The notes beneath the pieces are model-generated. The model was not told the DNA's origin and searched no databases. It saw nothing but the letters and a program-made list of their open reading frames with translations. A stretch of DNA of 5,741 bases from a virus. The position numbers and the translations under genes were made by a program. Position 1 is the stretch's first letter; each line of letters opens with the position of its first letter. Shown here piece after piece: positions 2,781 through 5,741 of the stretch. The stretch spans positions 1 through 5,741 of IMG/VR virus record IMGVR_UViG_3300045988_003419. One strand, written 5' to 3'.

Positions 2781-3710
2781 ATGGGCCTCTTATCAGGTTT
2801 AACAACATGGCTGCCGATCGTATCGGGCGGTCTGTCGATCGCAGGACAGATGAAAAATCTGTTCAGCAACACAAGCGGAAGCACCAGCAGCGCCATGGGA
2901 CAGCAGGGAATGAACACAAGCATAAGCAGCGGAAGCACCAGTGGAACAACCAGCGGAACCACGACCGCAAGCGGCGGAAGCGTAACAACAGGCAACACCG
3001 GTGCACTGGGTTCAATCCTGCAAACAGCAATGGGAAGCCCGACCGGAAACAACGCAGGACAGGCAGCAGGGTTCAACGCAGGACAAGCAGCAACGGCAAA
3101 CAACCTGCAAACAGGTATGTGGAGCTACGCGAACGGCCTGAACATGCTATCAAACATCGTTGCGAACGGTCTGAACCTCGCAAGCCAGACCAGCGCACAG
3201 AAGTACAACAGCGCAGAAGCAGCAGCACAACGAGCGTGGGCTGAAAGAATGAGCAGCACCGCATACCAGCGCGGAGTAAAAGACCTGAAAGCAGCAGGCT
3301 TGAATCCGATCTTAGCAGCATACAACGGATACGGAGCAAGCACACCGTCAGGCGGAACAGCAAGCAGCGGAATGCAAAGCTTTTCACACACTCAGAGCGC
3401 AGCGATCCCAAGCGCACACACGGCGACCATGCAAAGCATGTACGACTATGGGAACAACACGGCACAGTTCCTGCAAAACGCGATGAGCGCGATCAACACA
3501 GCAAAACAGTCAAACGAATGGTACAGCGCAGAGCAAATGCAGCAAGCCACAAGTCAAATCATGTCGAGCAGCGCACAACAGATCAGCAACCTGAACCAGC
3601 AGAGCAGCCAGCAAAGCAGCAGCACGACACGAGGAAACGAAAAGGGCATCAGCGGAGAAGGCCACGGGGACATTGAATGGAACCCGGGACACACAGCAAG
3701 GAAAAGATAG
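2781..3710 (+). CDS. Minor capsid / DNA pilot protein VP2 (functional analogue of phiX174 H).
   Basis: The SD AAGGGGG lies at 2768-2774. The N-terminus is hydrophobic ([22 protein letters not shown]). The core motif [31 protein letters not shown] matches the conserved pilot-protein block (..fqerMsnTAyQR.v.DlkaAGLNP.La). The gene lies directly after VP1. Confidence 0.9.
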
Positions 3711-3739
3711 TTGACAGACACAGAAAAGAGGTGTATAAT
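3711..3739 (+). promoter_or_regulatory. Perfect-consensus sigma-70/sigmaA promoter (P-A) driving the 3784-4023 RHH gene.
   Basis: TTGACA at 3711-3716, a 17-nt spacer, and TATAAT at 3734-3739. It begins on the base after the VP2 stop codon. The 17-mer AAAAGAGGTGTATAATA (3724-3740) is identical to 5374-5390. Confidence 0.8.
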
Positions 3740-3783
3740 ATGGGTGTACTAATCACACACCTTACCTAGAAAGGGGTATAACA

Positions 3784-4023
3784 ATGAGAAGCCAGATTGA
3801 AAAAAGAATGAACGTCAACTTAACCAACAGGGAAATGAAATCGCTGGAAAAACTCACCAAAATGGAAAGATTTGAAGGGTGGACAAAAAGCGATCTGATA
3901 AGGCAAGCAATAAACGTATATGCACGAGAAATGGGAAAGATAAACGCCACAAAAAGCGGATACAAAAGCAACGAGAAAGAAGAATACATCGAGATATGGG
4001 ACGATGACGATCTACCATACTAA
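3784..4023 (+). CDS. Ribbon-helix-helix DNA-binding protein with an acidic SSB-tip-like C-terminal tail (79 aa).
   Basis: The SD AAGGGG at 3771-3776 lies 7 nt before the ATG. KRMNVNLTNREMKSLEKLTKMERFEGWTKSDLIRQAINVYAREM fits the RHH strand-helix-helix pattern. The C-terminus is EEYIEIWDDDDLPY*. The gene has its own consensus promoter. Confidence 0.7.
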   Translation: MRSQIEKRMNVNLTNREMKSLEKLTKMERFEGWTKSDLIRQAINVYAREMGKINATKSGYKSNEKEEYIEIWDDDDLPY

Positions 4024-4051: not shown

Positions 4052-4071
4052 TGACACGAAAAATTGTGTCA
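4052..4071. repeat. Small inverted repeat / hairpin (6-bp stem TGACAC/GTGTCA, 8-nt loop).
   Basis: 4052-4057 TGACAC is the reverse complement of 4066-4071 GTGTCA. Its right arm overlaps the left arm of the larger hairpin, so the two structures are mutually exclusive. Confidence 0.6.
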
Positions 4072-4114
4072 GTGGGCCCCAATAACATCAAGAAGGGTTA
4101 TTGGGGCCCACTGA
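4069..4114. repeat. Perfect 18-bp inverted repeat (hairpin with a 10-nt loop) in the intergenic region upstream of rep.
   Basis: 4069-4086 TCAGTGGGCCCCAATAAC is the exact reverse complement of 4097-4114 GTTATTGGGGCCCACTGA. The loop is ATCAAGAAGG (4087-4096). No T-tract follows (CTGAGGTAAAG), so it is not a canonical intrinsic terminator. Confidence 0.9.
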
Positions 4115-4137: not shown

Positions 4138-5253
4138 ATGGGGTGCACAAGACCTTTGGTAAGATTCGCAGACGGCGAAATAACGACGCTGAAAAAGTAT
4201 CTGCTGGCAGGAAAGAGACACAACAGCCAACTCAACATTGAAGGACCATTCTTGGATGAAAGCCTAGAAAAAAAGCTGCTGCGAAAGCTGAAAGACGAAA
4301 ATGCACAAATCCTGCCGTGTGGACATTGTGCCGGGTGTAAAATGCAAAATGCAAGCAGCTGGGCGAACAGAATGGAAATGGAACTTCCATACCACGACAA
4401 TGCGTGGTTCTTAACACTCACATACGACAATGAACACGTACCATGGTCTTTTAACCAGGGTTTAGGCGTTAACAAAAAAACAGGCGAGATCATCATAGAA
4501 AATTTAACACTCAACTATGAGGACATGCAGAAATTTTGGAAAAGGCTAAGACGCTGGTTAGAATACCATGAAAGAAATACCGGAAAACTGATGTACTACC
4601 AAGCAGGCGAGTACGGAAGCCAGACACACAGACCACACTATCACGCGATCGTGTACGATCTGCCGATAAAGCCGGAAGAACTGAAAATCTACAAACAGAA
4701 GAACGGATTCAGATACTACAATGTTGAATGGCTCACAAAGCTGTGGGGTATGGGTCATGTAGTGGTAGCACCAGCAGAATGGAAAAACATGGCATACACC
4801 GCAAGATACACGACAAAAAAGATTTACGGCAAGGATTCAAAAAAATATTATGAAGAACTCGGAGTTTTACCAGAACGCTGCATGATGAGCAAAAATCCAG
4901 CGATCGGAATGCAGTACTATGAGGAACACAAAGATGAAATCTATGCAAAAGATGAAATTCAACTGAAAAATGGAAGGAGAGCAAAACCACCAAGATATTT
5001 TGATAAACTCTTTGATCTGGAACATTCAAACAGTAAACCGCTATCAGAAGCAGAAAGTGAGACGATAGAGGACACAATAGTAAAAGCCGAATCTGAAGAA
5101 CTGAAAGCAATCAAAAGAGAACGCCGAAGAATCGCAAACGACGCGCTATTTGCTCAGCTCAAGCAGACCGGCTTAACCATGCAAGAATATTATGATGTGA
5201 AAGATCAAAAAAATCAAGATAAATTTAAAAAACTTATCCGGGAAGAAATCTGA
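4138..5253 (+). CDS. Replication initiation protein VP4 (HUH rolling-circle endonuclease, phiX174 gene A family).
   Basis: The SD GAGGGTG lies at 4121-4127. The N-terminus is MGCTRP... followed by PCGHCAGCKMQNASSWANR, which gives a 4-Cys cluster. Motif 1 is FLTLTY. The HUH motif is RPHYHAIVY (HYH at 4636-4644). The two-tyrosine catalytic motif is YTARYTTKK (Tyr codons at 4795-4797 and 4807-4809). Confidence 0.95.
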   Translation: MGCTRPLVRFADGEITTLKKYLLAGKRHNSQLNIEGPFLDESLEKKLLRKLKDENAQILPCGHCAGCKMQNASSWANRMEMELPYHDNAWFLTLTYDNEHVPWSFNQGLGVNKKTGEIIIENLTLNYEDMQKFWKRLRRWLEYHERNTGKLMYYQAGEYGSQTHRPHYHAIVYDLPIKPEELKIYKQKNGFRYYNVEWLTKLWGMGHVVVAPAEWKNMAYTARYTTKKIYGKDSKKYYEELGVLPERCMMSKNPAIGMQYYEEHKDEIYAKDEIQLKNGRRAKPPRYFDKLFDLEHSNSKPLSEAESETIEDTIVKAESEELKAIKRERRRIANDALFAQLKQTGLTMQEYYDVKDQKNQDKFKKLIREEI

Positions 5254-5360: not shown

Positions 5361-5389
5361 TTGACAAGTGTATAAAAGAGGTGTATAAT
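5361..5389 (+). promoter_or_regulatory. Perfect-consensus sigma-70/sigmaA promoter (P-B), a near-duplicate of the 3711-3739 promoter, driving the 53-aa ORF.
   Basis: TTGACA at 5361-5366, a 17-nt spacer, and TATAAT at 5384-5389. Positions 5374-5390 are identical to 3724-3740, and GGTGTA at 5393-5398 matches 3743-3748. Confidence 0.8.
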
Positions 5390-5418
5390 AAAGGTGTAGA
5401 AAGGATGGTGCTTAAACC

Positions 5419-5580
5419 ATGAAAAGTTACTATGAAGAACATGTAGAAGATTGTGCAGCAGCTCTTTACGACGGCGGATGGAGAAGCACAGACAAAGACG
5501 AAATAAAAAAAGAGTACAACATGGATGAAGAATGGGCAAAAGCGATCTGTGAAAAGCTCAAAGAATACGAAAACCAATAA
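5419..5580 (+). CDS. Small acidic hypothetical protein of 53 aa, not assignable to a microvirus core family.
   Basis: Hand translation gives MKSYYEEHVEDCAAALYDGGWRSTDKDEIKKEYNMDEEWAKAICEKLKEYENQ*. An SD-like AAGGAtGGTG lies at 5401-5410, 8 nt before the ATG. The ORF is bracketed by a consensus promoter and a strong terminator. It has 15 D/E against 7 K/R plus one His. It is missing from the ORF track because it is shorter than 60 aa. Confidence 0.6.
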   Translation: MKSYYEEHVEDCAAALYDGGWRSTDKDEIKKEYNMDEEWAKAICEKLKEYENQ

Positions 5581-5595
5581 TGCTAACATTAAAAA

Positions 5596-5637
5596 CGTGA
5601 GGTTGACGAAAATCAACCTTGCGTTTTTTTTTTTTTT
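5596..5637 (+). terminator. Strong rho-independent terminator with a 14-T run.
   Basis: CGTGAGGTTGA (5596-5606) pairs with TCAACCTTGCG (5613-5623). This is an 11-bp stem with two G.U pairs and the loop CGAAAA, followed directly by T14 (5624-5637). Confidence 0.85.
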
Positions 5638-5667
5638 GGTAAAATGAGAGAAAAAGGAGGTGGTATC

Positions 5668-5741
5668 ATGGCATACCGCAAGACCGTAAAACCGAAGATC
5701 GACAAGAAAATTTTCACCAACACCGCAAAGAAAACCAAAAA
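5668..5741 (+). CDS. Redundant partial copy of the 46-165 small basic protein gene, an artefact of the terminal overlap and truncated by the window end.
   Basis: It lies inside the exact repeat 5623-5741. The ATG at 5668 corresponds to position 46 plus 5622. Confidence 0.9.
   Translation, partial: MAYRKTVKPKIDKKIFTNTAKKTK

Follow-up and report, generated by a model that had tools for sequence, protein, structure and literature searches.

The stretch of DNA analysed here (the window) is a 5,741-nucleotide viral sequence, IMG/VR record IMGVR_UViG_3300045988_003419, and represents a gokushovirus-like genome of the Microviridae with 47% G+C and every gene on the + strand. [quoted passage not shown] This RHH-tip ORF is a genuine early gene, conserved in a clade of gokushovirus-like microviruses of the gut. 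With regard to its function, we see about an even chance that the protein regulates the Rep operon in the manner of CopG and presents a mimic of the SSB-Ct to the SSB partners of its host. The ORF and its parts are as follows.

3784–4023, + strand: RHH-tip ORF, 79 amino acids (ORF call and translation)
3784–3954, + strand: probable RHH core, residues 1–57 (profiles, AlphaFold, Foldseek and conservation)
3955–3993, + strand: predicted disordered linker, residues 58–70 (low AlphaFold confidence [pLDDT] and variability)
3994–4023, + strand: SSB-Ct-like tip I-W-D-D-D-D-L-P-Y, residues 71–79, and stop codon (translation)

The C-terminal tip

The last nine codons of the ORF (ATA TGG GAC GAT GAC GAT CTA CCA TAC, 3994–4020) are followed by TAA at 4021–4023 and encode I-W-D-D-D-D-L-P-Y, as an earlier note on this DNA had read them. 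That note had compared this end with the tips of SSB proteins, given as ..DFDDDIPF for E. coli and ..DDDLPF for B. subtilis SsbA, and both were correct: SSB ends in ..MDFDDDIPF in E. coli and in ..IDISDDDLPF in the Gram-positive S. aureus and B. subtilis (PMC5531588). The B. subtilis partners of SSB include PriA, DnaE, RecG, RecQ, RecJ, RecO and Ung (PMC3000357).

We assembled homologues by a word-indexed search, which returned 63 close homologues, a search with a profile against 1.84 billion cluster representatives, which returned 27 clusters, and a second indexed search with a diverse alignment, which brought the set to 161 proteins (162 including the window protein); a search of IMG/VR found a single related locus. 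Nearly all of the RHH homologues, the 63 close ones and ~100 that are more distant, lie on contigs of ~5.6 kb or shorter. An [LI]-P-[FY] end was present in 90/162 family proteins (the LPF class), a different conserved tail, ..TGYTFANEWKPK.., in 42/162, and either no tail or another tail in 30/162. When the RHH cores were clustered at 65% identity, the LPF class occupied 7 clusters interleaved with tail-less ones, and it comprised eight tail lineages with unrelated linkers, the linkers of different lineages ranging from 8 to 45 residues in length. The lengths and C-termini of LPF-class proteins include the following.

P0068: 58 amino acids, ..LGYPDDLPF
70-amino-acid clade: 70 amino acids, ..EIISEEEDLPF
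75-amino-acid clade: 75 amino acids, ..ELITEEDELPF
P0086: 78 amino acids, ..IIIDDDDDLPF
Window protein: 79 amino acids, ..IEIWDDDDLPY
P0079: 88 amino acids, ..NDTDDNLPF
P0067: 97 amino acids, ..VGDEDKLPF
P0089: 104 amino acids, ..EINEDLPF

Because other family members either lack a tail or carry the second conserved one (the FANEW tail), the SSB-like tip is, by sequence comparison, a modular add-on to the RHH core. The FANEW tail itself, ..TG[YA][TV]FANEWK[PL]K.., was found in sister clades (P0066, P0090–P0160; e.g. L012, 4830–5033), in genes that occupy the same genomic slot with the same candidate operator ahead of them, and this extension may be an alternative docking peptide.

Residues at each tip position were counted in the 90 distinct LPF-class sequences (n = 90), numbering back from the C-terminus.

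Position -1: Phe 86, Tyr 4
Position -2: Pro 90
Position -3: Leu 89, Ile 1
Position -4: Asp/Glu 80, Lys 8, Asn 2
Position -5: Asp/Glu 90
Positions -6 and -7: Asp/Glu 85–86, that is, 94–96%
Position -8: mostly Thr/Ser
Position -9: Ile 85

All 90 proteins stop immediately after the motif, and the rare variants break single positions only. At eight independent loci the Leu is encoded by CTA, TTG, TTA or CTC and the Pro by CCA, CCG or CCC, and because these codons vary synonymously, the constraint acts on the peptide and not on the DNA. The linker, in contrast, is the most variable segment in the close clade (with the highest entropy and a 4-amino-acid indel), whereas the L-P-F is conserved as strongly as the core. 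The end to which the earlier note had drawn attention in a single protein is thus kept, as an acidic run followed by L-P-[FY], at the extreme C-terminus across divergent lineages whose linkers are not kept, a pattern that we attribute on sequence grounds to protein-level purifying selection and not to chance. The existence of tail-less and other-tailed family members is what might be expected if the protein were simply a small repressor and its tip had arisen by chance or been carried along, but the tip's recurrence in seven core clusters, the near-invariance of its Pro, Leu and aromatic residue despite synonymous codon turnover, and the termination of the ORFs exactly at that point make such an explanation highly implausible.

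The likeness to SSB extends over ~10 residues, as seen when IDISDDDLPF is set beside EIISEEEDLPF, LITEEDELPF and IIIDDDDDLPF. It does not extend to the rest of the protein: scans of the RHH-tip protein against Pfam, PHROGs and NCBIfam gave no SSB or OB (oligonucleotide-binding) match, and we rejected membership of the SSB family, as the fold is RHH. Because there is no OB fold, the protein is not an SSB, and only its tip is SSB-like. A profile of the tail alone, which is too short and compositionally biased, had no match among PDB sequences. We also considered a beta-clamp-binding motif (QL[SD]LF or QLxLxL) and rejected it, as Gln occurs at positions -5 to -7 in 0/90 sequences and the flank is strongly acidic. 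By way of comparison, no more than three proteins of the complete S. mutans proteome end in LPF, namely SsbA, SsbB and a nucleoid protein of the EbfC family; the last of these, SMU.394, is an EbfC/YbaB nucleoid-associated protein that binds double-stranded DNA, and it is the only non-SSB protein of S. mutans with this end (PMC5143411). By analogy, SMU.394 is a cellular precedent, in a Firmicute, for an LPF end on a protein that binds double-stranded DNA.

The same end brings in the main rival to a docking function, which is a credible one although we judge it distinctly unlikely: the L-P-[FY] might be a tag for proteolysis that keeps the repressor short-lived and so allows Rep and late expression to be retimed, with the likeness to SSB explained by SSB itself carrying the tag. 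Many RHH repressors and antitoxins are unstable, which fits this proposal, and the C-terminal L-P-[FY] that such a tag requires is present in the LPF class. In strain UA159 of S. mutans, ClpXP-dependent degradation of GFP in vivo depends on LPF, the final three residues of SsbA and SsbB, which are also enough to bring it about, and the sole substitution tolerated by this degron is LPY, the variant found in the window (PMC5143411). However, the degron is strain-dependent, does not operate in S. gordonii or E. coli, and was not reproduced when ClpXP was used in purified form (PMC5143411). Moreover, a three-residue tag leaves unexplained both the conserved acidic run and the hydrophobic and Ser/Thr pair that precedes it.

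The probable ribbon-helix-helix core and its candidate operator

Residues 1–57 are probably an RHH domain of the CopG/Arc/MetJ superfamily, as indicated by sequence profiles and structure prediction. In the AlphaFold model the core consists of an extended strand, K7-R8-x-N10-x-N12-L13-T14, followed by helices at residues 15–26 and 35–58. N10, T14, D37 and R40 are invariant in the family alignment, and conservation is 90% or higher at K7, R8, N12 and L13; on the N-terminal strand hydrophobic residues are interspersed between K7/R8, N10 and N12, as in a base-reading RHH ribbon. When 28 diverse family members were scanned singly against Pfam, 12 matched RHH_1 (best E = 1.1e-4) and others matched 56B_RHH, CcdA and RHH_3. 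Two PHROGs families, annotated as 'transcriptional repressor' (E = 1.9e-4) and 'CopG-like repressor', matched the window protein, and a profile of the family searched against PDB sequences had CopG (1b01, 2cpg) as its top match, a weak one (E = 0.047) in which the KRxNINLT strand falls on the CopG ribbon and SDxIR on the second CopG helix.

The structural comparisons pointed in the same direction. A monomer predicted by AlphaFold from a 111-sequence alignment reached a pLDDT of 88–93 over residues 11–50, with the N-terminal strand unpaired, as expected for a single chain of an RHH dimer, and with low confidence across residues 58–79 (about 50–65 or lower). Five of the six top Foldseek matches in the PDB were RHH proteins (ParD2 twice, ParD1, Reg576 and ParD), and the three best had target-normalised TM (template-modelling) scores of 0.71–0.75 and root-mean-square deviations of 2.2–2.5 Å over ~50 columns. 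Because the domain has only ~50 residues, no single one of these tests is strong, but all of them agree in direction, and the RHH domain proposed in the earlier note has held up through weak but concordant profile matches, a predicted core with a pLDDT of about 90, and the RHH matches from Foldseek.

A second RHH-like ORF is present at 162–365; its 67-amino-acid product matches Pfam RHH_3 (E = 0.011) and phrog_5118 (E = 8e-8) and has no acidic tail. Comparison of this protein with the family of the 3784–4023 product using hhalign detected no significant relation (probability 2%).

Upstream and downstream of the RHH-tip ORF we found the following candidate cis elements.

3711–3739, + strand: predicted promoter P_A, TTGACA-17 nt-TATAAT, 12/12 consensus
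3730–3762, + strand: candidate operator, overlapping the -10 element of P_A and the transcript start
4069–4114, + strand: perfect 18-bp GC-rich hairpin with loop ATCAAGAAGG (inverted repeat, 100% complementary)
5361–5389, + strand: predicted promoter P_B, 12/12 consensus, downstream of Rep

P_A is conserved in all 9 related loci. Its -10 element to about +20 reads GGTGTATAATATGGGTGTACTAATCACACACC, and the candidate operator within this region contains GGTGTA at 3730–3735 and 3743–3748, with the GTGTA starts 13 nt apart, and an inverted ACACACC at 3755–3761. This segment is almost invariant in the nine loci even though their RHH proteins share only ~31–60% identity. P_B has three direct GTGTA units, at 5368, 5381 and 5394 (again with 13-nt spacing; region 5361–5398), and it is conserved in L007, L009 and L010, with pig-faeces microviruses in GenBank matching at 84%. 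The two promoters have in common the 17-mer AAAAGAGGTGTATAATA as well as GGTGTATAAT, which occurs in 3 copies in the window versus 0.15 expected. Because conserved DNA-contact residues in the protein are paired with conserved repeats in the DNA, the combination has the look of a repressor and its operator. From its position and sequence we take P_A to be the promoter of the RHH-tip gene and probably of Rep as well; between the two genes there is no promoter scoring ≥10/12, and the 114-nt spacer holds the stable hairpin. P_B is probably under the same regulator as P_A. Either of the two RHH-like proteins, the product of 162–365 or that of 3784–4023, might read the GTGTA repeats. We also considered a leader peptide starting at a conserved ATG at 3740, inside the candidate operator, and judged it unlikely because this ATG lacks a Shine-Dalgarno sequence and, by its position, falls upstream of where transcription probably starts.

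The earlier note had named the adjacent hairpin as a possible DNA target of the protein, a suggestion for which we found no support: by eye, the stem bears no resemblance to the GTGTA repeats, and a conserved candidate operator instead overlaps the promoters. We therefore rejected the hairpin as the RHH target and treat it as a separate cis element. It has a DNA folding z-score of -5.3 and no T-run, and is also found in L002 (4505–4549), L007, L009, L010 and L012; among relatives its loop, ATCAAGARGG, and its inner stem, CCCCAATAAC, are invariant, and its outer stem has undergone compensatory changes in L007 and L010. A search of Rfam with the intergenic structures, including this hairpin, returned no family. 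On these features it could serve as an attenuator or as an origin, either of rolling-circle or of single-strand type. When the loop is read as its reverse complement, CTTGATGTTATT, it may resemble the core of the phiX174 origin, although on the wrong strand.

Proposed role of the tip on DNA

In the reading to which we gave an even chance, an RHH dimer or dimer of dimers would bind the GTGTA repeats, spaced by 13 nt, over both consensus promoters, and thereby exert feedback control over its own synthesis, that of Rep, and the second transcription unit, following the logic of copG-repB. The predicted disordered segment of residues 58–79 would present at its end the tail motif (a hydrophobic residue, [ST/W], 3–4 acidic residues, and L-P-[FY]-COOH), and the tip would dock into the SSB-Ct pockets of at least one host genome-maintenance protein. 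The DNA-bound oligomer would show 2–4 tips, as an SSB tetramer does, such that a host SSB partner would be concentrated on the replicative form of the phage near the Rep gene and the hairpin region. A more specific version, in which the oligomer acts as a 'pseudo-SSB on double-stranded DNA' that nucleates PriA/DnaE, or excludes Ung/RecJ, near Rep and the hairpin, is one that we advance tentatively and consider doubtful; were it correct, the FANEW tail of the sister phages would be a second host-docking peptide on the same scaffold.

The same motif evidence underlies the alternative of a decoy, which the earlier note had also raised and which would act in solution, with the tip pulling SSB partners (Ung, RecJ, RecQ, PriA) off SSB-coated DNA and thereby protecting the single-stranded DNA intermediates of the phage or crippling repair at host forks, and with the RHH domain serving only for regulation or for oligomerisation (and hence avidity). 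The RHH-tip gene is the first gene behind a perfect consensus promoter, making early and possibly high expression plausible, and phi29 p56 and PBS2 Ugi illustrate that phages with single-stranded DNA intermediates benefit from blocking Ung. Nonetheless, autorepression at P_A would cap the level of the protein, SSB is abundant and its tip usually binds partners with micromolar affinity, and no carrier of the phage tip other than this DNA-binding protein is seen, a restriction that a decoy would not need. We consider the decoy unlikely. Because the tip is always borne by this sequence-specific oligomeric binder of double-stranded DNA, and because an autorepressed protein is a poor bulk competitor, we favour tethering, with the decoy a close second.

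Several observations weigh against the proposal of a regulator that docks host proteins. Many family members do without the tip or have the FANEW tail in its place, which indicates that the core function does not need the tip. The window tip ends in Tyr, whereas the SSB-Ct consensus is Phe; this Tyr end is confined to the nearest relatives of the window protein, and relatives with 85–87% identity end in Phe. With respect to the domain, Pfam RHH_1 matches the window protein at only E = 0.014 (15.8 bits, under the curated cutoff of 20.5), and the Foldseek E-values are weak, at about 3, which we ascribe to the tiny size of the domain. A scan for the RHH family pattern across GTDB genomes found no homologue, and an 18-mer of the conserved hairpin had 17 genome matches, in unrelated taxa, compared with ~35 expected by chance according to our own estimate. 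In addition, SSB on the single-stranded DNA of the phage already supplies tips, such that the gain from tips borne on double-stranded DNA is not obvious, and an autorepressed protein may not reach the level needed to compete with SSB, a point that weakens the decoy variant.

Gene neighbourhood, novelty and comparison with known systems

The window has a terminal redundancy of 119 nt (1–119 = 5623–5741), and the genome is therefore a circle of 5,622 nt. Its other genes are listed below.

46–165, + strand: small basic VP8/J-like protein (phrog_10695)
162–365, + strand: RHH-like ORF
369–647, + strand: ORF5-like protein
644–1114, + strand: VP3 scaffold (E = 5e-33)
1111–2769, + strand: VP1 capsid (Pfam Phage_F, E = 5e-163)
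2781–3710, + strand: VP2 pilot protein
4138–5253, + strand: Rep, VP4-like HUH rolling-circle initiator (Pfam REP_ORF2-G2P, E = 2.1e-15; phrog_942, E = 7.8e-100)
5419–5580, + strand: 53-amino-acid ORF

The RHH-tip ORF has an ATG start with a Shine-Dalgarno-like AAGGGGT at 3771–3777, and the gene order VP2, RHH, Rep is kept, with any class of tail, in all related loci that are long enough to show it. The constant proximity to Rep fits another explanation, in which the acidic-aromatic tail binds a partner within the phage, either Rep or the basic VP8/J-like protein (46–165), or is self-inhibitory, folding onto the DNA-binding surface of the RHH domain as a DNA mimic in the manner of the tails of T7 gp2.5 or SSB. 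The tail is indeed strongly acidic and disordered, the genome does encode a very basic small protein, and RHH antitoxins such as ParD bind a partner protein through their C-terminal tails. However, a generic acidic DNA mimic would need neither an invariant Pro nor a terminal aromatic residue at the exact C-terminus, no toxin-like partner gene is present, and the 10-residue match to host SSB would have to be a coincidence. We regard this explanation as quite improbable.

A GGAGG-type Shine-Dalgarno sequence is present ahead of each gene in the window, and such signals, together with TTGACA/TATAAT promoters, are a poor fit to a Bacteroidota host. These signals and promoters, and a tip of the LPF and not the IPF type, are consistent with a host among the Bacillota, in which SSB tips are of the LPF type. 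One contig (L006; ENA ERZ27281030 k141_41694, 48,421 nt) joins a related microvirus genome to genes of bacterial or mobile-element type (FtsX, ABC transporter, ALP_N, DUF5720), and a search of its flank against plasmids found no match. We considered this contig as an integrated copy and rejected it as an assembly chimera, and not a prophage, because 92 nt are missing from its phage circle and an Illumina adapter, AGATCGGAAGAGCACACGT, forms its end. Downstream of Rep, the close relatives L001–L004 contain a Peptidase_M15_3 gene, a putative lysin (e.g. L002, 184–567), where the window has only the 53-amino-acid ORF at 5419–5580. At 5591–5640 of the window a terminator hairpin of 16 bp precedes a stretch of ~14 T, after which comes TGGTAAAAT; this resembles an extended -10 element, lies upstream of the block of structural genes, and is also present in L007.

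The earlier note was aware of no RHH/SSB-tip fusion in Microviridae, and our search of the full-text literature likewise found no account of such a fusion, of an RHH protein in Microviridae, or of an SSB-Ct mimic in phages, whether on a regulator or otherwise. The best BFVD match of the RHH-tip protein is an unnamed 70-amino-acid viral protein, and homologues are present in three GenBank records, MG945186.1 (L032, 5273–5485), KX513873.1 and MG945569.1, in all of which the gene is unannotated; that of MG945186 encodes a 70-amino-acid protein ending in AISEEEDLPF.

In bacterial genome maintenance the central docking peptide is the SSB C-terminal tip, which has been proposed as an antibiotic target. 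To our knowledge, natural proteins other than SSB that carry it are barely documented, and the control of gokushovirus replication has hardly been studied. If the tip of the RHH protein binds host partners, it would be a clear case in bacteriophages of short-linear-motif mimicry, a strategy better known from eukaryotic viruses, and phages would have an undescribed route by which to tap or block the SSB hub; the pseudo-SSB version would be a new mode of hijacking replication factors. Gokushoviruses would in that case gain a defined regulator, an operator and a point of contact with the host. The family also provides natural variants of the tip (LPF, LPY and IPF ends; Asp/Glu runs; Lys or Asn at position -4) that could help to map the tolerance of the SSB-Ct pocket.

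Among known systems, the closest in arrangement is that of rolling-circle plasmids in which an RHH gene, copG, lies ahead of the HUH rep gene, repB. CopG (RepA) of pMV158/pLS1 (PDB 1b01, 2cpg) is likewise a small RHH protein and gave the best PDB sequence match, and as in copG-repB the phage RHH gene directly precedes an HUH Rep gene in the same orientation and follows a strong promoter with which repeated or symmetric elements overlap. CopG, however, has 45 amino acids and no tail, and its homology to the phage protein is marginal (E about 0.05); the phage module also differs in having a stable conserved hairpin between the RHH gene and Rep, and its repression and co-transcription are only predicted. 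The best structural matches were instead to antitoxins of the ParD/CcdA kind (ParD2, 7r5a and 7b22; ParD1, 8c24; TM 0.71–0.75), which also combine an RHH domain for DNA binding and dimerisation with a disordered C-terminal tail, one that in antitoxins binds the partner. We rejected a toxin–antitoxin reading of the phage gene, as there is no toxin gene (comparison of the window ORFs with Pfam and PHROGs gave no match to a toxin family) and the next gene is the HUH Rep; furthermore, the phage tail is a short SSB-type motif and not a long toxin-wrapping segment.

Short terminal peptides with comparable roles are found in plasmid RK2 TrfA and in Hda, which have a beta-clamp-binding motif, and in T7 gp2.5 and gp4, which have acidic tails with a C-terminal Phe. 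The proposed principle is the same, in that a DNA-binding protein of a mobile element plugs a short terminal peptide into a hub of the host or replisome, but the hub and motif are different, the phage tip having no Gln/clamp pattern, and the polymerase on which the T7 tails act is that of T7 itself. With the LPF degron of S. mutans the phage tip shares an identical terminal tripeptide, LPY being tolerated, but that degron is strain-specific and needs three residues and no acidic run.

Like the SSB-Ct, the phage tip has a free carboxylate, being the very end of its protein, and comes after a disordered variable linker, and consists of an acidic run and then [IL]-P-aromatic; the 70- and 75-amino-acid clades match even the preceding hydrophobic and Ser/Thr positions, and the tip would probably be displayed in several copies on an oligomer. 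The phage tips differ from the SSB-Ct in often having one extra acidic residue, in using Glu as frequently as Asp, in the Tyr that ends the window copy, and in that their binding to the pocket is only predicted. They also differ in their carrier, as they follow a far shorter linker (8–45 amino acids) and are borne by an RHH fold that would bind double-stranded DNA, whereas the SSB tip is borne by an OB-fold tetramer that binds single-stranded DNA.

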